Origin: Vicinamibacteria bacterium | Lineage (GTDB): Bacteria; Acidobacteriota; Vicinamibacteria; Marinacidobacterales; Marinacidobacteraceae | Direction of reading: 5' to 3' | Length of the DNA stretch: 64,000 bases | Assembly: GCA_965199715.1 (NCBI GenBank) | Contig: OZ241322.1 | Span: 1,097,226 to 1,161,225 of the forward strand | Shown: piece after piece, positions 1,114 to 60,428 of the stretch | Position numbering within the stretch: position 1 is the stretch's first letter | Layout: the number at the start of each line of letters is the position of its first letter | The notes under the pieces: model-generated | The model's database searches: none | What the model was told of the DNA's origin: nothing | What the model saw: only the letters and a program-made list of their open reading frames with translations | Translations under genes and position numbers: made by a program

Positions 1114-1463
1114 GAGACGCCCTCCAGTCGGACGCGCACGACGCCCGACGAATGCAGGTGCGCCGACGACGGCGAGCGCAGTTTGCTGGCCGGTCAGGCT
1201 CGCCCGCAGGTCGTCGGCGCCGATGCGCGGGCGCCCGGGGCGTTCGGCCGGTCGAATCTGGCTCTCGTAATGGGCGGCCTCGCGACCGCCTTCGAATACC
1301 CGGTAGCGAACCTCCGCGTCACCGGTCGCGACGGCGATGATCGCGACGACGACTTCGGGCCTGGCGCGGAGCGTCGGGCATGGGAATCCGCGGGAGGTTA
1401 TCCGAGAGATCGGACATTTTCCGTCACGCTTTCCAAGAAACGGCTGGTAACCTCGCGCCCCGC

Positions 1464-4448
1464 ATGGACAGTCCGGTCAAGGAGCACCACGAGCTACAGC
1501 CGATCCTCCACTCCCCCTACGACGAGCCCGACCGGCACTGGAAGCTGGTCGATCACCAGACGACCGGGGACATCGTCGATCGCCGCCGGCCCGCCGAGGA
1601 GCGCGCCCCGACCCGGCGGCGCCGGCAGAAGGCGCTGCTCGGGGACGACCAGGTGGGCGAGACCGGAACGACGCCCAGCCCCATCGACAACTTGCGCGCG
1701 GAGGTTCGAGAGTGGCGCCGCGCGCAGTGGCCGGGGGTCACCGGAAACACCCGCCGGCTGCTCGAGTACTGGGCGCGTCCGCCGGGCGAAGGGGCGTACC
1801 ACAGCCCCTTCTTCGCCCAGCGCGAGGCCGTCGAGACGGTCGTGTACCTCACCGAGGCAGCCGACTCGAACCATGAGTGCGTGCGGCGCCTGAAGAAGCT
1901 CGGCGACGACTGGAGCGGGGGCCTCACCCGGCTCGCGATCCGCATGGCCACCGGCACCGGCAAGACCACGGTCATGGCGATGCTGATCGCCTGGTACGCG
2001 GTCAACCGCCGCGCGGAGCACCGGGCGGGACGCGGACTCGCGCGCAACGTCGGCATCCTCGTCGTCATCGCCCCCGGCCGGACGATCTCGGGCCAACTTC
2101 GCCGCCGGCTCGACCCGCGCCGCGGCGACAGCCTGTACGACTCGGGCCGCCTGCTGCCGCGGGATCTGCGGCCCCGGCTCAACAACCTCCGGGTGACCGT
2201 CCTGAACTTCGAGAAGCTCCGGCCCCGCCCGGCCGTGGGACTGCGCTCCATCGAGATCGAGGGCAAGGAGGCCATCGGCTGGGCGCGGGCCGAGGAGACG
2301 GCCGAAGTCCCCGAGACCTACGACCAGCTCTGGGACCGGCTGCTCGGCCGCGTGGACCCGCGGCACGGCGACCGGGTCGTGGTCCTGAACGACGAGGCCC
2401 ACCACTGCTGGGAGCGCAAGGCGGGCGCGAAGAAGCGGCGCGACGGCAGCGACCAGGGGGTCTGGATGGAGGCCATCCACGCGCTGGACGACCACCCGCG
2501 GTTCCGCGTCGCGCAGGCCATCGACCTGAGCGCCACGCCGTTCTTCATCGACCCGGCCAACACCCACGTTCCCCCGGACACGAGGATCCCGCGGCGGGAT
2601 CCGCTGGTTCCGTGGATCGTGAGCGAGTTCGCGCTCACCGAGTCCATGGAGGCCGGCCTCGTCACGATCCCCACCCCGCCGCGGAAGACCGACGCCGCGG
2701 AGCCGGACGCGCTCCAGAACCTGTACGAGGACAACGGCGGCCGCAGCCTCGACTCCGCCGCGAACCGGAAGAAGGTGCTGAACGCGGCGCGCCTGCTCTA
2801 CTCCGACTACGAGGCCACTTTCAGGGCGTGGAAGGAGCAGGGCGACCCCTCGATCGGGCGTCCGGTGCTCATCGTCATCGTGAACTCGAAGAAGAACGCG
2901 CGGGCGATGCTCGACATGCTGGGCGGCGCCCGCCGGGGGACCGAGGACGCCTGGGACATGCCGTCGGGGTTCGATCTGCTCTCCAACGTGCCCCACAACG
3001 GCGCGACCGAGCAGGAGTGCCTCGCGCGGCCCGCCCGGACCATCCTCGTGTACAGCAAGGGCCAGGGCGCGGTCGAGAAGAGCGCCGACAGCCGCTTCGA
3101 CCAGGGCGCGATCGGCGTCGAGGAGGTCAAGGACAGTCGCAAGCTGGAGGAGATCCTGCAGACGGTCGCCGAGCCGGGCCGCCCCGGCCAGCACGTGCGC
3201 TGCGTCGTGAGCATCGGCATGCTGACGGAGGGCTGGGACTGCCAGCGGGTCACCCACATCCTCGGCTACCGCAAGTTCGGCAGCCAGTTGCTGTGCGAGC
3301 AGACCACCGGGCGGGCGCTGCGGCGCCACGACTACGAGAACCGGATCGAGGTTCGCCGAAGCGACGACGGGAACGTGACCGAGCGGTTCGAGGCGACGTA
3401 CGCGACGGTGCTGGGCGTGCCGTTCAAGAACTTCGGCCCGCCGCCGGGGCCGACCCCCGGAGTCGTCAAGCCGCGCCGCACGGTCCGCGCGGTCGAGGAG
3501 CGCCGGATCAGCCATCGCATCCGGGTTCCCGACCTGTGCGACTACAAGCTCGTCCACGACACGCCGACGATCAAGCTGGATCCCGACCGGGTGGGCGCGG
3601 CCAAGCTGGCCTCGAGCGGCGACCGGATCGAGATCACCTGGGCGAAGTGCCGCGGGCCGTTCGGCAAGGAGCGCGTGCTCAAGGCGGCTCCCGCCGGACG
3701 GCCGGACGCGGGGGCGTGGAAGCTGGCCGCCGATCTCGCGACCTGGCTCACGAGGCGTCGGAGCGACGACCTGCGCAGCGGCCGCCTCTTCGCGTCCTGC
3801 CTCGTCGCCGTGAGGGCGTGGCTCGCCCACGGGAAGGTCGAATGCGAGCGGCCCGAGGCGCTTCTCCACGACGACGTCCGGCAGGAGGCGCTCCACCAGA
3901 TCCTGCACGCGGTCGTGGACGACCGCGACGCGCCGATCCAGAAGGTCGGAATCGCGACCGACCCCAAGGCGCTGCGCCGCTCGGCGGGCGACTGGGGGCC
4001 GTTCCAGACCACGCTGACCAACGTCGCGGAGGTCGGCAACTCGGAACTCGACCTCGCCGCCTGCCACAACCATTTCGAGACCAGGATCGTGCGAGCGCTC
4101 GACAAGCACCCCAGGGTCGCCGCGGTCGTGCGCAACCACGGCCCCGAGCGGTTCGAGATCCCATACCGCAGCGGCGGACGGTGGGCGCGGTACGTCCCTG
4201 ACTTCATCGTCCGCGCCGAGCCGATCGACGGGGTCACGCCGCACCTGATCGTCGAGGGCAAGGGGCCGCGGGACGGAAAGGCGGCGGACAAGGCGGCGTG
4301 GACGAGGGAGTGGTGGGTTCCCGCCGCGAATCACGCCGCCCGCGACGAGGGCGAGCCGGAGGCCCGATGGGGCTATCTCGAGATCCGATCGCTCGAACGT
4401 CTCGACCAGCAGATCGAGGCGGGCGTCCGGAGGACCGCAGCGTCATGA
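1464..4448 (+). CDS. res: Type III restriction enzyme Res subunit (SF2 helicase + PD-(D/E)xK endonuclease)
   Basis: Walker A MATGTGKTT, DEAH box VLNDEAHHCW, C-terminal nuclease motif VPDFIV...LIVEGKG; ~994 aa from internal ATG 1464 (track ORF starts at 1380 in same frame); stop overlaps mod start (ATGA). Confidence 0.8.
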   Translation: MDSPVKEHHELQPILHSPYDEPDRHWKLVDHQTTGDIVDRRRPAEERAPTRRRRQKALLGDDQVGETGTTPSPIDNLRAEVREWRRAQWPGVTGNTRRLLEYWARPPGEGAYHSPFFAQREAVETVVYLTEAADSNHECVRRLKKLGDDWSGGLTRLAIRMATGTGKTTVMAMLIAWYAVNRRAEHRAGRGLARNVGILVVIAPGRTISGQLRRRLDPRRGDSLYDSGRLLPRDLRPRLNNLRVTVLNFEKLRPRPAVGLRSIEIEGKEAIGWARAEETAEVPETYDQLWDRLLGRVDPRHGDRVVVLNDEAHHCWERKAGAKKRRDGSDQGVWMEAIHALDDHPRFRVAQAIDLSATPFFIDPANTHVPPDTRIPRRDPLVPWIVSEFALTESMEAGLVTIPTPPRKTDAAEPDALQNLYEDNGGRSLDSAANRKKVLNAARLLYSDYEATFRAWKEQGDPSIGRPVLIVIVNSKKNARAMLDMLGGARRGTEDAWDMPSGFDLLSNVPHNGATEQECLARPARTILVYSKGQGAVEKSADSRFDQGAIGVEEVKDSRKLEEILQTVAEPGRPGQHVRCVVSIGMLTEGWDCQRVTHILGYRKFGSQLLCEQTTGRALRRHDYENRIEVRRSDDGNVTERFEATYATVLGVPFKNFGPPPGPTPGVVKPRRTVRAVEERRISHRIRVPDLCDYKLVHDTPTIKLDPDRVGAAKLASSGDRIEITWAKCRGPFGKERVLKAAPAGRPDAGAWKLAADLATWLTRRRSDDLRSGRLFASCLVAVRAWLAHGKVECERPEALLHDDVRQEALHQILHAVVDDRDAPIQKVGIATDPKALRRSAGDWGPFQTTLTNVAEVGNSELDLAACHNHFETRIVRALDKHPRVAAVVRNHGPERFEIPYRSGGRWARYVPDFIVRAEPIDGVTPHLIVEGKGPRDGKAADKAAWTREWWVPAANHAARDEGEPEARWGYLEIRSLERLDQQIEAGVRRTAAS

Positions 4449-5299
4449 GCAAGACCCCGGACGCCTGGGAGCACGGCGGCAAGCGCCCGAACAACCCCAC
4501 CCAGGAAATCGTGGAGACCGCGAAGCCGCGGCGGAGCCGCCAGCACGCGAAGGACGTCCGGGCGCGCAGCGACGCCGAGCCCACGCTGCGCTGGAAGCGC
4601 TCCCGCGAGACGAAGACCGCGGCCGCGCCGATGCTCATGCGGGCCGAGCAGATCGACCCCGAGGCGTGGGTCACGACCCTGAAGCGGGTGCGCGAGCAGG
4701 GCGACCTGTTCGCCCCGTTCAACGCCTTCCGGGAGCCCGGATCGGCGACGCTCGACTGGTACCAGCACGCCGGCAACTGGTCGAACCGGCTCATCCACGC
4801 CGACGCCCGGCGGGCGATGGCGTCGCTGCTGGAGCACGAGCACGCCGCCGGCTCGGTGCAGATGTGCTTCTTCGATCCGCCCTACGGCATGGACTTCGAC
4901 GCAAGGTTCGGCAACGACACGATCCAGCGGCGGGCGTTCGTGGACACCTACGAGAAGGGCGTCCACTCGTATCTCGACGGAATCCGCGAGACCGCGATCC
5001 TCGCCCGGGAGCTGCTGACCGAATCGGGCAGCCTGTTCATGCAGATCGGCGACGTGAACGTCCACCGCTGCGCGATGGTGCTGGACGAGGTGTTCGGGCC
5101 GGAGAACCGGGTGACGACGATCACGATGGCGACGACCGGCGGCGGCAGCAGCACCAAGTCGATCGCGAAGGCGGGCGACTACCTCCTCTGGTACGCGAAG
5201 GACCGCGAGGAAATGGCCTTCCAGGCGCTCTACGAGGAGCAGGACGTCGAGGCGTGGTGCGATGGCCAGACTTTTGCGGGGGGGGGGGGATTTCCCTGA
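4445..5299 (+). CDS. mod: Type III DNA methyltransferase Mod, N-terminal reading frame (motif IV DPPY); terminated by frameshift at G12 tract
   Basis: NRLIHADARRAMASLL / FFDPPYG / ESGSLFMQIGD / MVLDEVFGPENRVTTI / DYLLWYAKD are collinear with EcoP15I-type Mod N-terminus; TGA at 5297 is 8 nt after G12. Confidence 0.8.
   Translation: MSKTPDAWEHGGKRPNNPTQEIVETAKPRRSRQHAKDVRARSDAEPTLRWKRSRETKTAAAPMLMRAEQIDPEAWVTTLKRVREQGDLFAPFNAFREPGSATLDWYQHAGNWSNRLIHADARRAMASLLEHEHAAGSVQMCFFDPPYGMDFDARFGNDTIQRRAFVDTYEKGVHSYLDGIRETAILARELLTESGSLFMQIGDVNVHRCAMVLDEVFGPENRVTTITMATTGGGSSTKSIAKAGDYLLWYAKDREEMAFQALYEEQDVEAWCDGQTFAGGGGFP
5278..5289 (+). repeat. G12 homopolymeric tract inside mod coding sequence (candidate slipped-strand phase-variation site)
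   Basis: cttttgcGGGGGGGGGGGGatttccc read directly; the two mod reading frames switch exactly here. Confidence 0.9.
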
Positions 5300-7022
5300 T
5301 GGAACGCGTCGAGCGCTGAGGCCCGAGGAGCGGCGAGACCCAAAGCGGAATCTCCCGGAAGGCACTGTCCTTTGGGCGATGCGAACGTTGTTGTCGCAGG
5401 GGCCTTCCAGCGGCGAACAGGGCCAACCGTTCACGTGGAACGGAATTCAGTTCGGCCCGCGAGGACTCGAAAAGGACCAGTGGCGTGTGGATCGCGCCGG
5501 CCTCGAGGCCCTCGCCACTGCAGATCGCTTCTGGACAGCGGTGAAGCCAGGGACCCAGACGGCGCGAGCCGCTCAACTCCAGCTACGGATTCTTAGGTCG
5601 GAAATGGCGGGCCGACGCCTCAACAACGTCTGGGCCCGGCAGATCGCCGCGACCGACAAGCGTTATCCCGTCCAGACGGGGGATCTCGCCATCCAGCGCT
5701 GCATGCTGATGACGACCAAGCCGGGCGACCTCGTGCTCGATCCGACCGGTGGCAGCGGCACGACGGCGGTGGTCGCCGAGGAGTGGGGCCGGCGCTGGAT
5801 CGCGATCGACAGTTCCCGGGAGAGCCTCGCCGTCGCCCGGGAGCGCGTGCTCGTGCGCGAGTACCCGGCGCATCTCCTGATCGGAAGCGCCGCCGGGTTC
5901 GCCCGGGAGAACGCGCTGCGCCACGCCGCGGGTCAGGAGCCGCTCGCCGGGCGGCCCCACGGCTCCCGCGATCCCGCCACCGGGATCGTCGTGGGCCGGA
6001 CGCCCTACGTGAGCGCCGCCACGCTCGCCTACCGGGACCGGCCCGACAAGGCCCGAACGCGCGACGTCACGTGGTTCGCGGACCGTCCCGACGGCGGCAA
6101 GAAGGGCGGCCGGATCGCGAGCCGGTTCACCGTCGAGACCGAGCACCTCGAGCAATACCGCAGCCCCGAGGAGCTTCTCAGCCCCCGCGAGCGGCGTCGG
6201 CAGGCGGACTGGAACGAGCGCGTCCTGCGCATGCTCGGCGACAAGGGCGTCGGCTCGAACGAGGGAACCCGCTGGACGCTCGAGGACATCGAGAACGTCG
6301 CCGACCGGCAACCCGAGAGCCGCCCCGGCGCGATCAGCCACCGCTGCCGTCTGATCGACCACGCCACCGGCGCGGCGAAGGACTGCGTCATCGCCATCTG
6401 GCCGCAGGACGCCAAGGTCGGCGTGGGCAACATCCAGCGCAACGTCCGCGAGGCGATCAGCCAGCACGTCGGCGGCGACGACCTCGCGCTGATCGTCGTG
6501 GGCGCGGAGATCGACGGCGGCTCGCACCAGTCGCTCGACGGCGGCCGGTGGCAAATCCCCGTCGCCCGCATCGAGGCGGGGGCCGAGCTGCATCTGAAGG
6601 AGACCCGGCGCAAGGCCGGCGACTCCGAGTCGGCGCTGCTTCTGGTCGCGGAGCCGGACGTGGAGGTCGAGGACGCCGGCGACGGGAAGCGCCGGGTCGC
6701 CGTCAAGGGCTGGCACCAGTTCAACCCGGTGACCGGCGAGTCGGACTTCTACGCCGCCGACCACATCCGCATGTGGCTGCTGGACACCGACTACAACGGG
6801 ACCGAATTCTGCGCCCGCCGCATCCACCTAAGCGCGAAGCTGCGCGCGAAGGAGAACCGGAAGGTGCTCCAGAGGGTCCTCGGGCGCAAGGGCGACCCGG
6901 ACGCGATCCGCGCGGTGTTCGGCTCCCGCAGCGAACCGTTCCCCGCGCCCGAGCAGGGCGAGATCGCCGTGCGCCTGATCGTCGGGAACGGGAGCGTCCT
7001 GAGCTGGCACGGCCCGGCTTAG
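5289..7022 (+). CDS. mod: Type III Mod continuation in +1 frame (AdoMet motif I and ~400-aa C-terminal extension)
   Basis: PGDLVLDPTGGSGTTAVV = motif I (FxGxG) of beta-class N6A/N4C MTase; frame is restored with mod N-part if G tract is 11 or 14 instead of 12. Confidence 0.75.
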   Translation, partial: DFPDGTRRALRPEERRDPKRNLPEGTVLWAMRTLLSQGPSSGEQGQPFTWNGIQFGPRGLEKDQWRVDRAGLEALATADRFWTAVKPGTQTARAAQLQLRILRSEMAGRRLNNVWARQIAATDKRYPVQTGDLAIQRCMLMTTKPGDLVLDPTGGSGTTAVVAEEWGRRWIAIDSSRESLAVARERVLVREYPAHLLIGSAAGFARENALRHAAGQEPLAGRPHGSRDPATGIVVGRTPYVSAATLAYRDRPDKARTRDVTWFADRPDGGKKGGRIASRFTVETEHLEQYRSPEELLSPRERRRQADWNERVLRMLGDKGVGSNEGTRWTLEDIENVADRQPESRPGAISHRCRLIDHATGAAKDCVIAIWPQDAKVGVGNIQRNVREAISQHVGGDDLALIVVGAEIDGGSHQSLDGGRWQIPVARIEAGAELHLKETRRKAGDSESALLLVAEPDVEVEDAGDGKRRVAVKGWHQFNPVTGESDFYAADHIRMWLLDTDYNGTEFCARRIHLSAKLRAKENRKVLQRVLGRKGDPDAIRAVFGSRSEPFPAPEQGEIAVRLIVGNGSVLSWHGPA

Positions 7023-7057
7023 GGCCGGGAGCCTCGCCGCCCTTCTTCACGCCTACA

Positions 7058-7063
7058 GTTTGA
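7058..7063 (+). promoter_or_regulatory. TTGACA -35-like hexamer upstream of three-gene operon (no convincing -10 found)
   Basis: exact TTGACA in intergenic 7023..7084, rare in this GC-rich background. Confidence 0.2.
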
Positions 7064-7084
7064 CAATCCGGGTAACCTTCCGGT

Positions 7085-7831
7085 GTGGCTGCGACGACGC
7101 GAAGCTTCCAAGGCGGCGCAGTGACGGACCCGGCCCGCCCCGTCGACGACAGCGGCTCTGGATTCGAACTCATTGAGCTGTCAGTGGTTTTCGCAACCAC
7201 GTCGAACAACCCGTCAATCATCAATCCGGATTTTCTCGCTCGCGCCGGAATCGTGGGCGAGGACTCGCCACTTAGCGGTGACCCCATCACTACTCCGGTG
7301 TTCTCACTGGTGAAGTACCAAACAGGCCTCGCCGTGCAAGCCGATCCTGAACGGGTCGTGTTGACGGAATCCCCGAATACTGGGAACCGGGTTGGCGCCC
7401 GGTGCGCACGGATGGCGTCGACATACGCGCAGGCGGTCCCGCACGTGGCGTACCGAGGAATCGGCGTCAATCCGAAGTTCTTTTTCCACCTCGTCCCGAC
7501 AGTTCAGGCGGAGATGGCCCGACTGCTGCATGAGCGCGGCGGTTGGCTGGAGTTCAAGGATTGCGAACCCACGGTGCAGCTCAAGGCGGTTTACGCACTC
7601 GACGCTCGCCAGATCACTGTCGATGCGAGCGCCGCCACAAGACGCTTGGGGCAAGGGGCCGAGCAGCGCGGTTTGCTAGTCCAGTGCAACGTGCACCGGG
7701 AGCTCACCGGTGACGCCGAGGAGCGGGCAGACGCCATGGCAACGATTCTTGAGCGGTGGGAGCGCGACATGAAGGACTGCCGAGAAGTGGCGCGGCGCTT
7801 CGCCGGTCGCCTTCAGCAGGAGGCCCAGTGA
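7085..7831 (+). CDS. hypothetical protein A (no recognisable domain), first gene of coupled A-B-C operon; alternative GTG start near 7121
   Basis: 248-aa ORF in lower-GC island; protein-like composition; stop overlaps B start (GTGA). Confidence 0.5.
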   Translation: MAATTRSFQGGAVTDPARPVDDSGSGFELIELSVVFATTSNNPSIINPDFLARAGIVGEDSPLSGDPITTPVFSLVKYQTGLAVQADPERVVLTESPNTGNRVGARCARMASTYAQAVPHVAYRGIGVNPKFFFHLVPTVQAEMARLLHERGGWLEFKDCEPTVQLKAVYALDARQITVDASAATRRLGQGAEQRGLLVQCNVHRELTGDAEERADAMATILERWERDMKDCREVARRFAGRLQQEAQ

Positions 7832-8601
7832 ACGAGACGCCGCTCCAGTCGCCAACGAAACGCCGACTGGTCGCAACCACGGCTCTCCTGACGGGAGATT
7901 TCGGCGAACGCGCTGACGCGACCAGGCCGCCAAGCTTCCCTGAGGAGGCCTTCTTGGCGGCGGAGGTGCGTGTCCCCTACGTCGTGCGTGCCGACCGAGT
8001 CCTGGTGCGGCGGGGTGGGCAGAATGCGACTTCGAGTATGCATGAGAATTTTTGGGCGGGGCTCGTTTCGTCCGGCAGTGCCGTCGGCGAGTTCGATAGC
8101 CCACTGCGCGAGTTCCACACCAACACCCTGAAGCCGGCGTTGAACGTTCTCACGCTTCTGGCACTCGTCAAGGCAACCCAAGCCGAGCACACCCGCGGCA
8201 TGGCCGGAATGCCGGACGCCACCGCCGCTCCGGACGCGAACGCGGACCTGCGAGCCGCCCTGATCGACCTTGATGAAGCGTCGGACGAGGCGCGAGAGGA
8301 AGGGTTCCCAGCGCTTTCCGAGAGGGCTCTAGGCGACGCCAGACGCCTGCTGAAGGACCTCTACCGTATGCACCCTTGCCGACTTGAGGTCTATCCGACG
8401 CCCGATGCCGAGATCGCTCTCGTGGCGCCCGGCGGGGACGATAGATCCGTGATGGTGTTGTGCGCTTCGGATGGCGGCGCTCTATGCACAGTCAACATTG
8501 ACGGGAGACTCCGATACGCACGGTACCCAAGCGCCGCCAGGCTCCCGGACGGCTTTGTCCGTGAAGGCATGCGGGACTTGGTCCGAGCGAGATCGCATTG
8601 A
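7828..8601 (+). CDS. hypothetical protein B (no recognisable domain)
   Basis: GTG start overlapping A stop; 257 aa; stop overlaps C start (TTGA); track ORF 7756..8601 is the same frame extended upstream. Confidence 0.5.
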   Translation: MNETPLQSPTKRRLVATTALLTGDFGERADATRPPSFPEEAFLAAEVRVPYVVRADRVLVRRGGQNATSSMHENFWAGLVSSGSAVGEFDSPLREFHTNTLKPALNVLTLLALVKATQAEHTRGMAGMPDATAAPDANADLRAALIDLDEASDEAREEGFPALSERALGDARRLLKDLYRMHPCRLEVYPTPDAEIALVAPGGDDRSVMVLCASDGGALCTVNIDGRLRYARYPSAARLPDGFVREGMRDLVRARSH

Positions 8602-9029
8602 CGCAGGCGCCGACGGCGATCCATGCCGCTGAGCAGCTTGGACGCGGGGTTTTCTCCGCCAAGGACGCGAAGCGGGCTGCCCGTTCCAAGATTCCACATC
8701 GGGTGTTCCTTACGAAGCCCGGGGTTGTACGCATTTCAGTAGACAGGCTGAATTTGGCTTCCGCGTCGGAAATCGTCACACTGGCCATCGACCGGGCCGA
8801 GAATCGACCGGGACGATTCCATGGCTGGGCCGTCTTGAGCGTGGACAAGGCGATCCGCAAGGGGCGACGCGTCGAGTCCACACCGGCAGAGGGAAATCCG
8901 CATCACGCCGACATCGTGCTTCCCGATCCCGCACGCGAGGATCGGGACGCTCAGATCGCACACGCGAGGGATATGGCTGACGCATCGAATTGGAAGCCGC
9001 GACCTGAAGCGACTTCAAGAGACTCGTGA
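8598..9029 (+). CDS. hypothetical protein C (143 aa, basic; no recognisable domain); TTG start
   Basis: only in-frame start is TTG overlapping B stop; no ATG in first 100 codons. Confidence 0.4.
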   Translation: MTQAPTAIHAAEQLGRGVFSAKDAKRAARSKIPHRVFLTKPGVVRISVDRLNLASASEIVTLAIDRAENRPGRFHGWAVLSVDKAIRKGRRVESTPAEGNPHHADIVLPDPAREDRDAQIAHARDMADASNWKPRPEATSRDS

Positions 9030-9130
9030 TTCACGCTCGCGAGTGATAGCGGCCACGGCTGTCCTCAAGCGGGCACCGGAAAAGCAGGACCGGGTTCTGC
9101 GCCCGTCGCAAGCGACGACCGACCACGGCG

Positions 9131-9370
9131 TCACGGCCCCTCGTCGCGCTTCTCTCGAAAGAACTCCCCGGCGGGCTGTCCGAGCGAGGGCATCGTGGCC
9201 CGGAAGCGCGCCAGATCTTCAACCGCCACGGGTTTCTTGGGGCGAGCTACGGCGGTGAGTCTCGCCACAGTCTTGCCCCGCCGCGTGATCAGAATGTCCT
9301 CACCGGCCTCAACGCGGTTCACGATCTCGCTGAGACGAGCCCTCGCGGCGGAAACGCTGATGGTCGTCAC
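9131..9370 (-). CDS. Phd/YefM-type (VapB-like) antitoxin paralog 3, no intact downstream toxin
   Basis: MTTISVSAARARLSEIVNRVEAGEDILITRRGK matches Phd/YefM N-terminal fold; 4-nt overlap with PIN C-terminal fragment. Confidence 0.7.
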   Translation of the reverse strand: MTTISVSAARARLSEIVNRVEAGEDILITRRGKTVARLTAVARPKKPVAVEDLARFRATMPSLGQPAGEFFREKRDEGP

Positions 9371-9826
9371 GAGAATGCGTGGCCCTGCCAGCTCATGGCG
9401 ATCGGGCCCGCCGTCGTCGGGAGTTCGAGCATTTCGCCGGCGATGAGCATCCCCTTGTCCAAGGTGTAGATGGCGGCGGCATCGTGATTTCGGGCGATCG
9501 CAAGGTGAAGCGCGTCACCCGCTCGCAGCCCGGTCTCGAAGTACCCGAGCCAACTCGCTGCTAACCGGAAATCGTCCTCCGTCGGGGTCAGTCGAACGAA
9601 GGAGTCCCGAACCATGCCTCGTAGCGGGCGCTTACGGCATGGGCCGCCGGGCCGTCAAGCTGGCCCATGCAACCTCGCGCGCAAACGTAGAGGCAACTTC
9701 AACCCCGGTCCAGTCGCTGACCGCAAGTCCCCCCACGCACGGAGCCGCGAAGAACTCAGCTATCGCGAAGCTGTGGGCTTCGTCCAAGAACAGCGGAACC
9801 AGGAAACTCGTGTCGAAGTAGCGCAT
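9367..9826 (-). pseudogene. vapC: vapC (PIN-domain toxin) disrupted by frameshift into two ORFs (9632..9826 N-part, 9367..9615 C-part)
   Basis: N-part MRYFDTSFLVPLFLDE and C-part GDALHLAIA...IYTLDKG contain all four PIN acidic positions but lie in different frames. Confidence 0.6.
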
Positions 9827-9844
9827 TCGACAGCCCGCGGGACC

Positions 9845-10084
9845 TCACCTTCCCTCGTCGCGCATCTCGCGGATGAGCTCCGCCGACGGTCGGCGCAGGC
9901 GTGGCATCGAAGTCCGAAAGCGCTCCAGTTCCTTGAGCGGCAGCGGTTTCTTGGGACGGAGCACGGCGGTGAGCCGGATTGGCTGCTTGCCCCGGCGAGT
10001 GATGACGACATCCTGCGCGTCCGCAAGCTTGTCCAAGACTTCGTCGAGGCGCACCTTCGCCCGATTGAGACTGATCGTGAACAT
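9845..10084 (-). CDS. Phd/YefM-type antitoxin paralog 2 (cognate of the disrupted vapC)
   Basis: MFTISLNRAKVRLDEVLDKLADAQDVVITRRGK; 18 nt upstream of vapC N-part. Confidence 0.7.
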   Translation of the reverse strand: MFTISLNRAKVRLDEVLDKLADAQDVVITRRGKQPIRLTAVLRPKKPLPLKELERFRTSMPRLRRPSAELIREMRDEGR

Positions 10085-10110
10085 CGGAACCTACCCCCAA
10101 GGGCGAGGAG

Positions 10111-10120
10111 TCTAGCGAGG
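10111..10120 (-). promoter_or_regulatory. second copy of operator-like motif upstream of antitoxin paralog 2
   Basis: TCTAGCGAGG 27-36 nt upstream of start at 10084. Confidence 0.3.
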
Positions 10121-10130
10121 ACGGGGGCGC

Positions 10131-10364
10131 TCAGCTCTCCTCGTCGGACACTTCCGGCTCGCGCTCCCCCGACGGCCGGCGTCGCATCGAGGCCCGGAGC
10201 TTGGCCAGTTCCTCGAGCGGCGGCGGCTCCTTGGGACCGAGCACCGCCTTCACGTGCACGGACTCCTTGCCGCGGCGGGTGATGACCACGTCCTCCCCCT
10301 CGGCGAGCTTGTCGAGAATCTCCTCAGGGCGCGACTTCGCCTTCGTGTACGTGATCGTGAACAT
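10131..10364 (-). CDS. Phd/YefM-type antitoxin paralog 1 (directly followed by paralog 2, no toxin between)
   Basis: MFTITYTKAKSRPEEILDKLAEGEDVVITRRGK; GGGAGG RBS; ~75% nt identity to paralog 2. Confidence 0.7.
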   Translation of the reverse strand: MFTITYTKAKSRPEEILDKLAEGEDVVITRRGKESVHVKAVLGPKEPPPLEELAKLRASMRRRPSGEREPEVSDEES

Positions 10365-10390
10365 CGAGAACCTCCCTACCGCAGAAGGAT

Positions 10391-10400
10391 GCTAGCGAGG
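10391..10400 (-). promoter_or_regulatory. conserved operator-like motif GCTAGCGAGG (minus strand CCTCGCTAGC) 27-36 nt upstream of antitoxin paralog 1
   Basis: same motif (TCTAGCGAGG) at identical spacing upstream of paralog 2; contains palindrome GCTAGC. Confidence 0.3.
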
Positions 10401-10415
10401 GCCGAATGCGCCGGT

Positions 10416-10478
10416 TCACCGCCCCTCGCCCCGGATCTCCCGAAAGAACTCCCCGGCCGACTGCCGGGGTGAGGGCGC
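10416..10478 (-). pseudogene. 3' remnant (~20 codons) of a fourth antitoxin paralog
   Basis: translates to ...PSPRQSAGEFFREIRGEGR*, near-identical to C-terminus of paralog 3 (PSLGQPAGEFFREKRDEGP); no N-terminal part. Confidence 0.45.
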
Positions 10479-10571
10479 TCCGGGTAGTTCCCGAGTTGAC
10501 ATTTTTCAGGGGGGATTTCGGAGCAAGGCAGGGGCGAACCACGACGCCGCCCGGCCGACAGGGAGGCCCCG

Positions 10572-10958
10572 ATGCGAAATCTGGTGATTGCGGTGGCCGG
10601 CGTGGTCGCGGTGGGCGCGCTGGCGCTCGGGCTGGCCCGTTGCGACGCTGGCCCCGCCAACCGGCAGGCGGGTGCGGCGGGCGGCGCCGGCGCGGCCCCT
10701 TCCCGGCCTCCCATCCGTGCGGTGACCCCGGAAGACTTCACCATGGAACGCGTGTCGGAGTGGCTGGCCCGGCTCCATGACGCGGGCATCATTTCGGCTG
10801 AATGCTTGCCGCGTTTCACGCGAATCACGCCGGTGTGCGCGACAACGGGCCGAGGCGGACGATTGGAACGGCGATGTGGTGGCTCGGCGTGGTTGGGTAC
10901 TCCGTCCTCTCCGGACTGCTCGGCATGGACGGCGTGCTCCCCTATGGGCTCGCCTTGA
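10572..10958 (+). CDS. small putative secreted/lipoprotein (signal peptide); C-terminal half of ORF doubtful
   Basis: ATG with GGGAGG RBS 7 nt upstream; hydrophobic N-terminus MRNLVIAVAGVVAVGALALGLARC. Confidence 0.3.
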   Translation: MRNLVIAVAGVVAVGALALGLARCDAGPANRQAGAAGGAGAAPSRPPIRAVTPEDFTMERVSEWLARLHDAGIISAECLPRFTRITPVCATTGRGGRLERRCGGSAWLGTPSSPDCSAWTACSPMGSP

Positions 10959-11068
10959 CGATCGTGGGAATCCTCGTCGTCATCGACTGGGGCGATCTGA
11001 TCCGAAACGTGCGGCGTCGGATTTCTCCGCAGACCGAGTTTCCTGCGGTATGGCGGCGCTCGGGGTGA
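10874..11068 (+). CDS. small putative membrane protein (2 TM)
   Basis: MWWLGVVGYSVLSGLLG...ALTIVGILVVIDWG hydrophobic segments; overlaps previous ORF, only one of the two is likely fully real. Confidence 0.3.
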   Translation: MWWLGVVGYSVLSGLLGMDGVLPYGLALTIVGILVVIDWGDLIRNVRRRISPQTEFPAVWRRSG

Positions 11069-11108
11069 CTCTCGTGGGCGTGCGGCGACCCGAACGCCGC
11101 CCGGGGCA

Positions 11109-11846
11109 CTACGGCGTGACCGTCAGCTCCACGATCCGGTCCTCCCCGAGGAAGCTGTCGTCGTTGTGGAAGTACCAGCGCCGGTTCGCCGGGAGGCGCA
11201 GGCCACCGTCCTCGGCCTCCTCGCTCAGGTGGATGTACTCGCCGTCGTTCGCCGCCTCGTCGTGGTAGAAGCGGTAGCCGATCATCCGGGCGGTCTCGGG
11301 GTGGAAGTAGAAGTACCAGATGTCCCCGCCCTCGTAGTGGACCCGGACCTTCTGCGCGTCCTGCCCGTCGTAGGCCTCCGCGACCGGAGCGTCCGCGATG
11401 ATGGCCCCGGGATCGCGCAGCTTCATGGGAAGCCCGTACAGGTACAGGTAGTAGTTCCGAAGTCGCATCACGGTCGCCTCGTCGATCCCGGCCTCCGCGA
11501 ACGCTTCCTCGGTGAGATCGGCGTTCCCATCGACCGAGCGGGCGACCACCTGCTCGCCCTCGACCTCGATGCGGACGGTTCCGTTCTCGGTCTCGCGGCT
11601 GGCCTCCATGGTCCGCCCGCCGCGCCCGAACCTGAGCGTCGTCACCCGGTCGGTTCCGCCGGGCCGCGACTCCTCAAGGCGGAGCGTGATCTCGGCGCTC
11701 CCCCAGACCCCCTCGGGATCGTGGTGCGCAATCGAACGCTCGATCAGGGCTTCCGCATCCGACATCGCCGGCGGGGGCGGCGCGGCCGGCTCCTCCGGCG
11801 GCGGGGCGCCGCAGGCGAGCGCGGCGAGCAGTGGCAAATAACGCAT
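11109..11846 (-). CDS. hypothetical lipoprotein (245 aa)
   Basis: internal ATG 11846 with GGAGG RBS; signal MRYLPLLAALACG; track ORF 11109..12290 has long N-terminal artefact. Confidence 0.6.
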   Translation of the reverse strand: MRYLPLLAALACGAPPPEEPAAPPPPAMSDAEALIERSIAHHDPEGVWGSAEITLRLEESRPGGTDRVTTLRFGRGGRTMEASRETENGTVRIEVEGEQVVARSVDGNADLTEEAFAEAGIDEATVMRLRNYYLYLYGLPMKLRDPGAIIADAPVAEAYDGQDAQKVRVHYEGGDIWYFYFHPETARMIGYRFYHDEAANDGEYIHLSEEAEDGGLRLPANRRWYFHNDDSFLGEDRIVELTVTP

Positions 11847-15691: not shown

Positions 15692-17797
15692 ATGAAGACC
15701 CCGCTTCTCGCCCTTCTCCTCGCCGCCGGGTGCGGCGCCGCCCCCGAACCCATGCCGGAAAACCCCCTTCTCGCCGAGAGCGCCCTGCCCTATCGGCTCC
15801 CCCCCTTCGACCTCATCACGGACGACCACTACCTGCCGGCGTTCGAGGAGGGGATGGCCGAGGAGATCGCGCTCATGGAGCGGATCGCGGCCTCGTCCGA
15901 CGATCCGACGTTCGAGAACACGATCGTCCCGATGGAGACCGGCTCGCCGCTGCTGGCGCGGGTCTCGCGGGTGTTCTTCGGGCTTTCCGGAGCGCACACC
16001 AACGACGCGATGAACGCAATCCGCGAGGAGATCTCGCCGAAGCTGGCCGCCCACGCCGACCGCATCCTCCTGAACCCGGATCTCTTCGCGCGGGTCGAGG
16101 CGATCCACGCGGCGCGGGAGTCCAGCGGGCTCGACGCGGAGCAGATCCGGCTGGTGGAGCGGTACCGCCGCAACTTCATCCGCGCCGGCGCGACGCTGTC
16201 CGAGGAGCAGAAGGAGCGGATGCGCGAGATCAACGCCCGGCTCGCGTCGCTCGGGTCCACGTTCACGCGCAACGTGCTGGACGAGGTGAACGCCGCGGCG
16301 GTCGTGGTCGAGGACGAGTCCGAGCTCGCCGGGCTGGACGAGGGAGCGGTGGCGGCCGCGCGGGAGGCGGCGGCCGCCCGCGGCCTCGACGGCCAATTCG
16401 TGATCCCGCTGCTGAACACGAGCGGCCAGCCGGCGCTCGCGAGCCTGACCGACCGGGCGCTGCGCGAGCGCATCATGCGGGCCTCGCTCGGGCGCGGCGG
16501 CAGCGGCGGCGAACACGACAACACCGAGGTCATCACCGAGATCGCCCGGCTGCGGGCCGAGCGCGCCGCGATGCTCGGCTATCCGCACCATGCGGCGTTC
16601 GTGCTCGAGGAGCAGACCGCGGGCGCGGTGGAGGCGGTGCACGAGCGCCTCTCCGCGCTCACCCCGGTGGCGGTCGAGAACGCCCGGCGCGAGGCCGCCG
16701 AACTGGAGCGCGTGGCCCGGGACGGCGGCGAGGACATCCGGGTCGCCGCGTGGGACTGGCAGATCTACACCGAGAAGCTGCGGGCCGAACTCTTCGACTT
16801 CGACGCCTCGGCGCTGCGCCCGTACTTCGAGCTGAACGGCGTGCTGGAGAAGGGAGTCTTCTTCGCCGCGAACCGGCTCTACGGGATGACGTTCGAGGAG
16901 CGCCCCGAACTTCCGGTCTATCAGGAGGACGTGCGCATCTGGGAGGTCTTCGACCACGACGGCTCGGCGCTCGGGCTGTTCATCGGCGACTTCTACGCCC
17001 GCCCGTCGAAGCGCGGCGGCGCGTGGATGAACGCCTACGTGCCGCAGTCGGGCCTGCTCGGGACGAAACCGGTGGTCGGGAACCACCTGAACGTCCCCGA
17101 GCCGCCCGAGGGCGAGCCGACGCTGCTCACGTTCGACGAGGTCATCACCCTGTTCCACGAGTTCGGGCACGCGATCCACGGGCTGTTCTCGGACGTGCGC
17201 TACCCGACGTTCGCCGGAACTTCGGTCCCCAGGGACTTCGTGGAGTTCCCCTCGCAGGTGAACGAGATGTGGGCGACCTGGCCCGAGGTGCTCCAGAACT
17301 ACGCGGTCCACCACGAGACCGGCGAGCCCATCCCCGCCGACCTGCTGGAGCGGGTGCTGTCCAGCCAGACGTTCAACCAGGGGTTCGCGACGACCGAGTA
17401 TCTGGCGGCGACGCTGCTGGACCTCGCGTGGCACGAACTCCAAGCCGACGAGGTTCCCGAGGCCGGGCGGGCGATCGCCTTCGAGGAGGCCGCGCTCGAA
17501 TCGGCGGGGGTCGCGTTCGCCCCGGTTCCGCCCCGCTACCGGAGCACGTACTTCTCCCACATCTGGGGGAGCGGCTACTCGGCGGGCTACTACTCGTACA
17601 TCTGGAGCGAAGTGCTCGACGCCGACACGGTGGAGTGGTTCCGCGAGAACGGCGGCCTGCTGCGCGAGAACGGCGACCACTTCCGGGCGACGCTGCTGTC
17701 GCGCGGCGGCTCGGTCGAGGCGATGCGGCTCTTCCGCGACTTCCGGGGCCGGGACGCCGAGATCGGCCCGCTGCTGAAGCGCCGCGGGCTGGACTGA
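15692..17797 (+). CDS. dcp: M3-family peptidyl-dipeptidase (Dcp/oligopeptidase A-like), lipoprotein signal
   Basis: HEFGHAIH zinc motif, full-length M3 architecture, N-terminal MKTPLLALLLAAGCG. Confidence 0.8.
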   Translation: MKTPLLALLLAAGCGAAPEPMPENPLLAESALPYRLPPFDLITDDHYLPAFEEGMAEEIALMERIAASSDDPTFENTIVPMETGSPLLARVSRVFFGLSGAHTNDAMNAIREEISPKLAAHADRILLNPDLFARVEAIHAARESSGLDAEQIRLVERYRRNFIRAGATLSEEQKERMREINARLASLGSTFTRNVLDEVNAAAVVVEDESELAGLDEGAVAAAREAAAARGLDGQFVIPLLNTSGQPALASLTDRALRERIMRASLGRGGSGGEHDNTEVITEIARLRAERAAMLGYPHHAAFVLEEQTAGAVEAVHERLSALTPVAVENARREAAELERVARDGGEDIRVAAWDWQIYTEKLRAELFDFDASALRPYFELNGVLEKGVFFAANRLYGMTFEERPELPVYQEDVRIWEVFDHDGSALGLFIGDFYARPSKRGGAWMNAYVPQSGLLGTKPVVGNHLNVPEPPEGEPTLLTFDEVITLFHEFGHAIHGLFSDVRYPTFAGTSVPRDFVEFPSQVNEMWATWPEVLQNYAVHHETGEPIPADLLERVLSSQTFNQGFATTEYLAATLLDLAWHELQADEVPEAGRAIAFEEAALESAGVAFAPVPPRYRSTYFSHIWGSGYSAGYYSYIWSEVLDADTVEWFRENGGLLRENGDHFRATLLSRGGSVEAMRLFRDFRGRDAEIGPLLKRRGLD

Positions 17798-17808
17798 GGG
17801 TTCGGGCC

Positions 17809-18858
17809 ATGGATCGCGCCCATGCGGACCGCATCGGCGCCCTCATGGCCCGTCTTCCCTTCGACCTCGATCCGGACATGGAAGCGACCGGCCGTCCGCC
17901 GACGATGGCCGGGTCGCAGTTCCTGACGAATCGAGAACAGGGCGACTGGGCGGAGGAGATCCTCCACGACGCGACCAACGGCCATTCGCCGGACTACGCG
18001 GCGGTCCGGTATGGGCGGGCGGAGTCGCTTCCGGCCGACGATCCCGGTTTCCCCAAGCACTTCGCGGACTACGTCGCCGAACTGAACGCCGTCGGCAAGA
18101 AACCCGACCTGCTCGTCGTTTCCCGGCGAGCCGGCGGCGCGACCGAACCCGCGGAGCGCGCGGTCGCCGGACTCGAAGTCCGCTCCAGCAGCTTTCTCGC
18201 GGACAAGTACGCCCGCTTCATGCGCAGCCGCAACACGGCCGCCGAAGCCGAGTGCCTTCGCCTTCAAGCCATCGTGCTCGGCGATCCCTACGGACCGCTT
18301 CTCCGCGAGAAAGCGCCGGAGACCCACGACCTGCTCTCGCGCGCCACGCGAGGGACGTTTCGGGAGATCACCTTCCGCGCCCGCAACCGGTCCTCGTCGG
18401 CGGCCCTGCGCGAGCTCAGCGAGCACCTCCGGGCGCTGCGGACCGAGATCCGGACCCTACACAAGCGGGACTACCTGAGCATCACGCCGAAGCTGGAGGA
18501 TCTCGTCCTGGTGAACCGTTGGATCCAGCGGTTCGGCGTGCCGCACTACTACGTGCAAGCGTTCTTCGACAGGGCGTTCGTGATCTCGTTCGAAAGCATC
18601 CTGCGCATCGTCGCCCGCCCTGAATGGGAGGGCGAGAAGTTCTCCGTCGAGCGCGACGTCAAGAACCAGCAGAAGACGACGCTCAAGATCGACGTCGGCG
18701 TCGGGCGGGAACTCGTGGGACGCATCGACTTCCCGAGTCACGAGTCGGCGTTGAGAGAGCTCGAGCGCGGACGGCTCCTCTTCTACGTCAGATTCCGCGG
18801 CGGGAGGGGCTATCTCGACGCGGACGCCTTCGAGCAGGAGATCGTCGGTGGGCGTTGA
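17809..18858 (+). CDS. putative Type II restriction endonuclease (unrecognised family) paired with downstream MTase
   Basis: 349-aa ORF whose stop overlaps the MTase start by 11 nt; possible PD-x(n)-ExR core KPDLLVV...GLEVRS; no other family match from sequence. Confidence 0.4.
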   Translation: MDRAHADRIGALMARLPFDLDPDMEATGRPPTMAGSQFLTNREQGDWAEEILHDATNGHSPDYAAVRYGRAESLPADDPGFPKHFADYVAELNAVGKKPDLLVVSRRAGGATEPAERAVAGLEVRSSSFLADKYARFMRSRNTAAEAECLRLQAIVLGDPYGPLLREKAPETHDLLSRATRGTFREITFRARNRSSSAALRELSEHLRALRTEIRTLHKRDYLSITPKLEDLVLVNRWIQRFGVPHYYVQAFFDRAFVISFESILRIVARPEWEGEKFSVERDVKNQQKTTLKIDVGVGRELVGRIDFPSHESALRELERGRLLFYVRFRGGRGYLDADAFEQEIVGGR

Positions 18859-20365
18859 CGCCTCCCGCTACGCGGCGATCGTCGGGGAGGAGCACCGGCG
18901 CAGGTTCGGCCAGTACTTCACTCCGCCCGCCGTCGCCCGGTTCATGGTGGACTGGGCGCTCGGCGGCGGGGCGAAGTCGATCCACGATCCGGGCTTCGGC
19001 CTCGGCGCGTTCCTCGACGCGGCGGACGGGCGGGGGGCGCGCTTTTCGGCGAGCGAGGTGGATCGGCGGGCCGTGCGCTTCTTCCAGGAGTCCTCGCACC
19101 GATGGAACGGCGAGCTTCGGGAGGAGGACTACCTGCTCGTCTGGGGCCGCCGATTCGACGCGATCGTCTGCAATCCGCCGTACCTGCGATTCCAGCGCTT
19201 TCGCGACCGGCACGCCATCCTGGCCGGCTTCCGCAAGAATCTGGGGTTTCGGCTATCCGGATACACGAACTCGGCCTCGGCGTTCCTCGTCAAGTCGCTG
19301 TCGGAACTGACCCCGGGAGGCAGGCTCGCCTACGTGACGCCGCTGGAGTTCCTGAACACCGGCTACGGGATGGGGGTCAAGGAACGGCTCCTCGCGAGCG
19401 GCGCTTCCCTGAGCCTGATCCAGCTCGACTGCGAGAAGGACGTGTTCCCGGACGTCATCACGTCCGTCGGGATCGTGCTGCTGGACACGGGCGCCGCGGC
19501 CGACGCGGTGCGGTTCCATTCGGTGCGATCGCTCGAGGAGCTCGAGGAAACGCTCGGCGGGCCGCCCATCGCTTCCGTCCCGACCGCTGATCTCCGCCCG
19601 GAAGAGCGGTGGATTCCTCACTTCACGGCGCGGTCGATTCGGCCGGACCGCACTCGCGTGGGGTCCATCCTCCAATACGGCCGTTTCACCCGAGGCATCG
19701 CGACCGGCGCCAACGACTTCTTCGTCATGCGACCTTCCCGCGCCCGCGCGCTGTCGCTCGAAGCGGAGGAGACCGCCCGGTGCATCACCAAGAGTCGGCA
19801 AGTCCGCAGCGCGGTCTTCACGAAGCGCGATCTCGCCGCGCTCGCCGACAAGGACGATCCGGTCCTCTTCTTCCGGGCGGGGCCGCGCCCGAGTCCGCCG
19901 GCGGCGACCTACATCGCCCACGGAGAGGAGCGGGGCCTGCATCGCCGCTACCTCCTGCGGCAGCGCCGTCCGTGGTTCAAGAGCGAGACCCGGAATCCGG
20001 CGCCGCTGCTGCTCGGCGTCTTCTCGCGGGGCGACTACAAGGTGGTTCTCAACCGGAGCGGGGCGCTCAACCTGACGTGCTTCCACGGCTTCGTCCCGCG
20101 GCTGCTCGGGCGGAACTACGTGGATCGGTTGTTCCTGTACCTCATCTCCGAGACCGGGCGCGACCTCATGGCCGACCTCGCCCGGCGTTACGGCGATTCG
20201 CTCGTCAAGTACGAGCCGCACGACCTGAACGACGCGCCCGTTCCCGTGCCGGAGGTGCTCGACCAGCTCGGTGCGGACGAAGTGGCCGACGCCGTGGTGC
20301 GCGTCCGCGCCGGAGCGGGCCTGCCCTCGGCCGTCGAGAACCGCTTCCGGGCGCTCGTGGCCTGA
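18848..20365 (+). CDS. gamma-class N6-adenine DNA methyltransferase (TaqI/Eco57I-like)
   Basis: motif X QYFTPPAVARFMVD, motif I HDPGFGLGAFL, motif IV VCNPPYL in gamma order. Confidence 0.8.
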   Translation: MGVDASRYAAIVGEEHRRRFGQYFTPPAVARFMVDWALGGGAKSIHDPGFGLGAFLDAADGRGARFSASEVDRRAVRFFQESSHRWNGELREEDYLLVWGRRFDAIVCNPPYLRFQRFRDRHAILAGFRKNLGFRLSGYTNSASAFLVKSLSELTPGGRLAYVTPLEFLNTGYGMGVKERLLASGASLSLIQLDCEKDVFPDVITSVGIVLLDTGAAADAVRFHSVRSLEELEETLGGPPIASVPTADLRPEERWIPHFTARSIRPDRTRVGSILQYGRFTRGIATGANDFFVMRPSRARALSLEAEETARCITKSRQVRSAVFTKRDLAALADKDDPVLFFRAGPRPSPPAATYIAHGEERGLHRRYLLRQRRPWFKSETRNPAPLLLGVFSRGDYKVVLNRSGALNLTCFHGFVPRLLGRNYVDRLFLYLISETGRDLMADLARRYGDSLVKYEPHDLNDAPVPVPEVLDQLGADEVADAVVRVRAGAGLPSAVENRFRALVA

Positions 20366-40407: not shown

Positions 40408-40529
40408 CGGGACACTCGTCGGGGACGCCGCAAGGGTAACCGCCGGCGCGGTGGTAGCATGGCGCGTTTTCCGATCGGGGCCATGGCGGAATCCGCCGCC
40501 CCGCCTTCGTGTCCGCGGACGGGAGAAGC

Positions 40530-58358: not shown

Positions 58359-60428
<2,070 letters not shown>

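Follow-up and report, generated by a model that had tools for sequence, protein, structure and literature searches.

Positions 1464–7022 of a 64,000-nucleotide stretch of contig OZ241322.1 from a Vicinamibacteria bacterium (the whole stretch is referred to here as the window) encode a two-gene Type III-like restriction–modification (R–M) system, in which the restriction gene res precedes the modification gene mod, and mod is interrupted by a frameshift within a run of 12 guanines (G12). The locus is interpreted, with a probability of about 0.68, as a phase-variable R–M system that has been recorded in its OFF state, unless the assembly has miscounted the homopolymer. The noteworthy feature of the locus is this phase-variation switch, which belongs to a known kind of mechanism. 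A preliminary description of the locus had reconstructed the Mod protein across the break and had passed over its significance, namely that the break coincides with a hypermutable poly-G tract. The locus comprises the following features:

1464–4448, + strand: res, encoding the 994-amino-acid (aa) helicase–nuclease subunit; the reading frame is open from 1380
1947–1967, + strand: Walker A/helicase motif I of Res, ATGTGKT (Res aa 162)
2391–2402, + strand: helicase motif II of Res, DEAH (Res aa 310)
4197–4262, + strand: C-terminal PD-(D/E)xK nuclease motif of Res, PD...EGK (aa 912 and 931, at window positions 4197 and 4254)
4445–4448, + strand: ATGA, in which the res stop and the mod start overlap (TGA 4446–4448 over ATG 4445–4447, read directly)
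4445–5299, + strand: mod 5′ segment, a 284-aa truncated product as recorded, with the N-terminal region and motif IV, DPPY (4874–4885)
5278–5289, + strand: G12 homopolymer, where the frame shifts; putative phase-variation switch
5289–7022, + strand: mod 3′ segment in the shifted frame, with the target-recognition region, motif I, TGGSGTT (5745–5765), and the C-terminal extension (mechanical reading frame 5262–7022)
5859–7019, + strand: Mod C-terminal extension, residues 472–858, family-specific and multi-domain

Three plus-strand open reading frames (ORFs) extend across the locus (1380–4448, 4298–5299, and 5262–7022), and mod is represented by two of them rather than one, 4445–5299 and 5262–7022, the latter in another frame. 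The +1 frameshift between the two halves sits inside the G12 run. The product of the 5′ segment terminates in ...TFAGGGGFP*, and this recorded 284-residue Mod keeps motif IV (DPPY) and lacks the variable region and motif I. Deletion of one G from G12 yields an 858-aa Mod in agreement with the family consensus; the reconstructed junction reads TFAGGGDFPDGTRRAL, as in the intact, 77%-identical homologue P0001, and the wider reconstruction around it (...QTFAGGGDFPDGTRRAL...) reproduces the exact junction of that 862-aa protein. The Mod of about 858 aa that had been proposed earlier is thus recovered only after the one-G deletion, whereas the recorded gene consists of two ORFs split in G12. A tract of either G11 or G14 would restore the mod frame. 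Both halves of mod have a coding-type GC content at third codon positions (GC3) of 0.89–0.90, and no other lesion is present; since removal of one G restores the consensus frame and joins two halves of coding GC3, the lesion appears to be single and clean.

The tract stands out against the composition of its surroundings. The GC content of the window is 72%, and G12 is the sole homopolymer of at least 8 nucleotides (nt) in the 64 kb; G/C runs of length 5, 6, and 7 occur 109, 17, and 2 times, respectively, runs of 8–11 are absent, and a run of 12 occurs once. An order-1 Markov model predicts about 5.7 runs of at least 8 nt and reaches a length of 12 in 4% of simulations; homopolymers are therefore depleted in the window, and G12 is an outlier. 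GGG accounts for 20–27% of the Gly codons in this genome. Phase-variable mod genes have been defined by a mononucleotide repeat of at least 9 nt within the mod ORF (Atack et al. 2018), and such a repeat is present here as G12.

Four other lineages, with proteins 53–59% identical to the window Mod and genomes of 51–70% GC, have a G tract at these codons as well (G9, G12, G12, and G15/G20):

L084: 55% identity to the window Mod; genome GC 57%; G12 at the same codons; out of frame
L089: 58–59% identity; genome GC 61%; G12 followed by C; in frame
L088: 52–53% identity; genome GC 52%; G20; in frame
L091: allele of L088 (P0054 cluster); genome GC 51%; G15; gene split into products of 287 + 590 aa
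L092 (Logan assembly of a public sequencing run): 56% identity; GC 70%; G9; out of frame

A change in tract length is seen between L088 and L091, which are 99.88% identical over 5.8 kb and differ by only 5 gaps, matching the difference between G20 (ON) and G15 (OFF). The P0054 cluster (at least 90% identity) contains both full-length versions, with 6 or 7 Gly residues, and truncated versions of 285 or 287 aa, and intact homologues carry a run of 2–6 Gly residues at the tract site. Database "homologues" of about 545–590 aa begin just after the tract position, which indicates that the gene is split elsewhere as well. When a degenerate DNA pattern of the tract site was searched for, the Joint Genome Institute (JGI) metagenome collection gave one match (L087), which was spurious, and viral contigs gave none. 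The two near-identical alleles also differ in res: L088, with mod ON, has a res broken by an insertion of about 980 bp (2214–3194) beside a C12 run, while L091, with mod OFF, has an intact res. This contrast suggests, from the two alleles as sequenced, alternative ways of disarming the system. In phasevarions, a broken res accompanying a mod that is ON has been described (PMC3874151), and L088 presents the same combination.

In the proposed mechanism, Res would combine a superfamily 2 (SF2) helicase-like motor with a PD-(D/E)xK nuclease at its C-terminus, forming together with Mod an ATP-dependent two-subunit R–M enzyme in which Mod would supply sequence recognition and host protection. Slipped-strand mispairing in the poly-G tract at codons 278–282 would control Mod expression: with G11 or G14, full-length Mod would be produced (ON), whereas with G12, Mod would stop at residue 284, short of the recognition region and of the S-adenosylmethionine (AdoMet)-binding motif I (OFF). 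In characterized Type III enzymes, recognition is performed by Mod, and Mod expression raises Res levels (PMC3874151). Because a Type III Res depends on Mod to locate DNA, the OFF state would silence restriction and methylation together without self-killing, provided that the Res of this system likewise depends on its Mod. A population of this strain would alternate reversibly between restricting and methylating cells and naive cells, and a gene-regulatory (phasevarion) effect may accompany this.

The tract resembles those of known phase-variable Type III mod genes with G[n] tracts, such as Helicobacter pylori modH, modJ, and modL and Campylobacter modU (PMC5909438). As in phasevarion mod genes, a G tract of at least 9 nt lies within the mod ORF, its length sets the reading frame, and relatives that are nearly identical to one another include ON and OFF alleles. 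The window system differs from them in its subfamily and gene order and in the position of the tract, which lies in the middle of the gene, at the border of the recognition region. Its host also differs: phasevarion pathogens have small genomes, whereas the window derives from a 72% GC, apparently free-living or symbiotic diderm.

Several observations weigh against this interpretation. The nearest relatives (76–77% and 68% identity) carry interrupted (GGA GGA GGA) or mixed Gly codons at the site and no tract; the tract is therefore patchy and not ancestral to the whole clade. Tract-length toggling is seen in relatives, and the strain of the window is represented by a single sequence. On the side of Res, the score against the family model NF046055 (572 bits) falls below the curated equivalog cutoff of 800, and the sequence is only marginally similar to EcoP15I Res (E = 0.017), with Type I HsdR ranking higher in Foldseek comparisons, so that a Type III mechanism is deduced from architecture. 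Finally, all tract-bearing homologue contigs except L092 are named like long-read metagenome assemblies; if the source of the window is also a long-read metagenome, a homopolymer miscount of ±1 would be plausible, and the true state could be ON.

According to this last possibility, the gene would really be intact (G11 or G14), and the system would be ON and still switchable. A single-base difference would suffice, the homologue contigs in ENA bear names of the long-read type, and the source annotation called only a 472-aa fragment of mod (P0039), with no curated check. On the other hand, the independent homologue L084 has the same out-of-frame G12, an OFF length is also found in the Logan assembly (L092, G9), and the 5-nt difference between G15 and G20 is too large for such an error. 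A miscount is accordingly regarded as unlikely, while still a serious chance, and a recorded OFF state of a phase-variable gene is preferred.

The frameshift could alternatively be a fixed inactivating mutation in a decaying pseudogene, which would leave the system dead. Irreversible lesions do occur in relatives: in L086 (4575–6000), an IS3-family element (HTH_21/rve) is inserted in mod, and in L085 (5860–5975) an insertion of about 110 bp is found, both a few codons past the tract site, after "ERRDPK"; L092 has a second frameshift, and the insertion of about 980 bp in the res of L088 belongs to the same class. In the window, by contrast, the sole lesion falls exactly in the hypermutable tract, both halves of mod are otherwise intact with coding GC3, and res is intact, which makes decay quite improbable here.

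It is also conceivable that G12 is itself the functional genotype, and that RNA-polymerase slippage or +1 ribosomal frameshifting yields both truncated and full-length Mod by programmed recoding. The out-of-frame G12 is common to two unrelated genomes (the window and L084), and among the tract-bearing alleles, OFF lengths are at least as numerous as ON lengths (five against three). However, in-frame tracts exist (L089, whose G12 is in frame in its own context; L088, G20; and P0136), tract length is not conserved, intact relatives have no tract at all, and a stimulatory element was not identified. Recoding thus appears highly improbable, and reversible slippage of the DNA tract is retained as the explanation of the frameshift.

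The assignment of the two genes to a Type III-like system is based on the architecture of both proteins. The preliminary description had proposed a helicase–nuclease paired with a beta-class methyltransferase, and this pairing agrees with the Pfam matches of Res to ResIII (2.3e-8) and of Mod to N6_N4_Mtase (3e-29, residues 138–464 of the reconstruction); the three Res motifs it listed could all be located (aa 162, 310, and 912/931), the ATGA overlap of stop and start was confirmed at 4445–4448, and DPPY (aa 144) does precede motif I (aa 434) in Mod, which is the beta-class order. The res start is likely ATG 1464, because homologue alignments begin at about residues 31–40 of the ORF that opens at 1380. 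Beyond ATGTGKT, DEAH, and PD...EGK, Res contains the motifs TEGWD and QTTGRALRR. Across 75 homologues, the residues of these motifs are conserved without or almost without exception, helicase motifs I, II, and VI included; T163, G164, G166, K167, and T168, as well as N309, D310, E311, H313, and H314, are invariant, as are P912, D913, and E931 of the nuclease, with K933 nearly so. The N-terminus (window 1464–1545) carries a strongly conserved "P..SPYxEPxRHW" motif.

Res aligns to NCBIfam NF046055 (BPTD_3080 family restriction endonuclease) over positions 3–967 of 970 (572 bits, E = 2.5e-171), and it is a full-length relative of that family, below the equivalog level. Matches to described restriction enzymes are far weaker: PADLOC Type III restriction endonuclease (REase) models barely match (E = 3.7e-4), and so do the Type I REase models; a phmmer search of PDB sequences with Res gave no match; and a profile of 31 sequences gave weak matches to EcoP15I Res (4zcf_C, E = 0.017) and, over the nuclease motif, to T7 endonuclease I (E = 0.1). 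The AlphaFold model of Res (predicted local distance difference test score, pLDDT, 82.8; predicted template-modelling score, pTM, 0.70) matches SF2 restriction motors in Foldseek, namely EcoR124I HsdR, RadD, SauUSI, EcoP15I Res, and LlaBIII, with EcoP15I Res at rank 28 (E = 3.5e-6), behind Type I HsdR and RadD. The domain order of Res, motor followed by nuclease, is the Type III order.

Mod is matched considerably better. PADLOC MTase_III recognizes it at 8e-93, and its profile matches Type III Mods of the PDB, including that of H. pylori (6k0w, 1e-16), EcoP15I (4zcf_A, 5.8e-14), and Mbo45V (7dsu); over the mod 5′ segment, these Type III Mod matches cover residues 114–298 (6k0w, 4zcf_A, 7dsu). 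The order of motifs and the DPPY sequence suggest a beta-class amino-methyltransferase that would produce N6-methyladenine (m6A) rather than N4-methylcytosine (m4C). The first 20 residues (window 4445–4510) contain strongly conserved H10, R14, N16, and P18 ("HGxxRxNNPT").

The remainder of Mod had been described as about 400 aa past motif I that could not be assigned to a domain. Residues 472–858 have no Pfam match even at E ≤ 10, the PDB profile search gave no sequence match beyond residue ~482, and Foldseek of the C-terminus against the PDB returned nothing at E ≤ 1e-3 (best MspJI, 4.7e-3, with a low TM-score). The AlphaFold model (pLDDT 80.7, pTM 0.41) shows several small alpha/beta and beta-rich modules. 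The region is nevertheless conserved: an exhaustive phmmer search with residues 522–858 found it in 594 representative clusters, always C-terminal, in proteins of about 820–970 aa or fragments, and the last ~190 aa match phrog_67 "DNA methyltransferase" (positions 551–732), while a tblastn search of phage genomes with the Mod C-terminus gave no match. These comparisons indicate that the C-terminal ~390 aa are a conserved, family-specific Mod C-terminus with no described domain.

Gene order was compared in 80 species-level genome loci from many phyla, which are those among the matches listed (29–44% identity); close relatives were fetched singly. Res lies upstream of Mod on the same strand in 59 of the 80, downstream of Mod in 17, and was not found in 4. 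The closest homologues, L001–L003 (77%), L093 (76%), and L094 (68%), encode a Res of 1018–1023 aa followed by Mod with a 4-nt overlap, an arrangement shared by close relatives of 71–77% identity, and on plasmids annotated by the Prokaryotic Genome Annotation Pipeline (PGAP) a BPTD_3080 family restriction endonuclease is followed by a site-specific DNA-methyltransferase; other sources label relatives "type III restriction enzyme". Because the closest homologues, most of the listed loci (59/80), and the PGAP plasmids share the res–mod order, it is neither unique nor an inversion artefact. An assembly inversion, which the preliminary description had named as the finding that would overturn it, was rejected, as the order is kept in relatives (L001–L003, L093, and L094). 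Its view of the inverted order and the oversized Mod as oddities of this locus does not hold either, since dozens of intact Mod homologues of 855–875 aa were found in the Mod search. The res–mod order and a Mod of ~860 aa are thus the norm of a widespread, named, and biochemically unstudied Type III-like family. A literature search by the name BPTD_3080 found no paper on the family.

Among the usual attributes of a Type III system, the locus has a beta-class Mod with a central target-recognition region and a Res in which an SF2 helicase-like ATPase is N-terminal and a PD-(D/E)xK nuclease C-terminal; it does not have a mod-then-res operon (res 1464–4448 precedes mod 4445–7022). The pair may not be Type III in mechanism, but a distinct helicase–nuclease/methyltransferase defence module in which the Mod C-terminus serves, for example, in Res docking, extra DNA binding, or sensing. 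The gene order reversed relative to EcoP1/EcoP15, the lack of a significant PDB sequence match for Res, the bare matches of the PADLOC Type III REase models (E = 3.7e-4), and a ~390-aa Mod C-terminus without a Pfam match or a PDB fold match at E ≤ 1e-3 are consistent with such a module. It is rendered improbable by the strong Type III Mod profile matches (MTase_III, and EcoP15I and H. pylori Mod in the PDB), the Type III domain order of Res, the 17 of the 80 listed loci in which the same Mod family uses the mod–res order, and the labelling of homologues as "type III restriction enzyme". A Type III-like assignment is therefore kept.

Compared with the prototypes EcoP1I and EcoP15I, the window system is likewise a two-gene system with a beta-class Mod, in which motif IV comes before motif I and a central variable region is present, and with a Res in which the SF2 motor precedes a C-terminal PD-(D/E)xK nuclease. 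The EcoP1I and EcoP15I genes are contiguous and translationally coupled (PMC3874151), and the genes of the window locus are likewise contiguous; the ATGA overlap suggests a coupling of mod translation to res termination, as the mirror image of EcoP1 coupling. Unlike the prototypes (mod–res), the window locus is ordered res–mod, and its Mod is 858 aa long compared with 644 aa, with ~390 extra C-terminal residues. The BPTD_3080 pair of Rhodococcus sp. DN22 plasmid p4 has the same res–mod order and a large Mod (911 aa), and identity to the named plasmid examples is about 30%. Type III systems have been shown to be more diverse than their prototypes, with diverged Mod and Res, some of which need Res for methylation (Murray et al. 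2021, PMC8259958). The m4C Type III systems of that study include four with the prototypical mod and res arrangement (PMC8259958), whereas DPPY in the window Mod suggests m6A.

Repeats are not confined to the poly-G site. In about 12 of the 80 loci among the matches listed, repeats lie within mod or res or a short way upstream of them:

L012: res, (GA)16, 4151–4182, at a frame break
L081: res, C12, 5208–5219, at a frame break
L036: mod, G11, 7789–7799, at a frame break
L049: mod, (CCCAA)7, 7418–7452, at a frame break
L076: mod, C10, 7157–7166, at a frame break
L009: res, C12, 5238–5249, in frame
L038: mod, G16, 7686–7701, in frame
L031: G18 in the mod 5′ region, 6011–6028
L024: (AG)16 in the mod 5′ region, 5912–5943
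L019: G9 upstream of mod or res
L028: C9 upstream of mod or res
L030: (ACGCC)10+(CGCAC)6 upstream of mod or res, 2440–2520

Reversible ON/OFF switching by a poly-G tract is also known for the methyltransferase gene pglX of the Pgl/BREX defence system in the high-GC bacterium Streptomyces coelicolor; that system differs from the one in the window in being BREX-like, with a gamma-class methyltransferase and no Res helicase–nuclease. The share of repeat-bearing loci in the present family is close to the 17.4% of mod genes from Type III systems with such repeats in a REBASE survey, which used a mononucleotide tract of at least 9 nt as its criterion and found phase-variable examples in environmental species too (PMC5909438).

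The surroundings of the locus include two elongation factor G (EF-G) paralogues (40509–42596, + strand, and 58359–60428, − strand), SecY (47839–49221), a GyrB-like gene (61839–63743), and MacB/HlyD efflux genes; the locus is therefore placed on the chromosome of a diderm-type high-GC bacterium. A promoter and terminator scan of the window gave nothing above background, and no transfer RNA genes were found in the 64 kb. Directly downstream of mod (window 7000–11000), the GC content falls from 72% to 63–66%, and no ORF in this region has the high-GC3 signature of the genome. ORFs 7085–7831, 7756–8601, and 9614–10282 have no Pfam match, the first two have no NCBIfam or PADLOC match, and these three together with 8598–9026 and 10777–11265 have no PHROGs match; this region flanking the R–M genes may be foreign or decayed DNA. 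The downstream ORFs at 7085–8601 were considered as components of the system and rejected, as they have no matches and are not conserved beside homologues.

A second, unrelated R–M pair is found at window 17887–20365. The 3′ part of ORF 15730–18858 encodes an AccI-type restriction endonuclease domain (PF09545, 5e-87), and the next gene, which overlaps that ORF by 11 nt, specifies an Eco57I/N6_Mtase-like methylase (18848–20365). Close homologues of the res–mod system are located in mobile or defence contexts: the R–M genes adjoin ArdC and a type IV secretion (conjugative) gene set in L001 (12692–22589) and a HEPN_AbiU2 gene in L093 (6749–7504), and AbiEii and transposases lie near them in L089 (1517–1846).

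The gene-order "anomaly" is no discovery in itself, being the norm of a large, named family that has not been studied biochemically. What is useful is that this family has repeatedly been equipped with hypermutable repeats, with the same poly-G site in at least five lineages of 51–72% GC, and the repeat data support the idea, already proposed in the literature, that environmental bacteria commonly carry phase-variable methyltransferases. Annotation pipelines split such tract-bearing genes into fragments. The window locus offers a concrete candidate for probing the roles of the Mod C-terminus and of the reversed coupling. A bolder proposal, which is tentative and on balance doubtful, is that BPTD_3080-related res–mod systems with a ~860-aa Mod form a mechanistically distinct Type III-like branch, in which the Mod C-terminus would serve a new function (for instance, to hold or gate Res) and repeat-mediated switching of either subunit would be family-wide and unusually pervasive, in environmental and symbiotic bacteria across phyla. 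If this were true, phasevarion-type bet-hedging would extend well beyond host-adapted pathogens.

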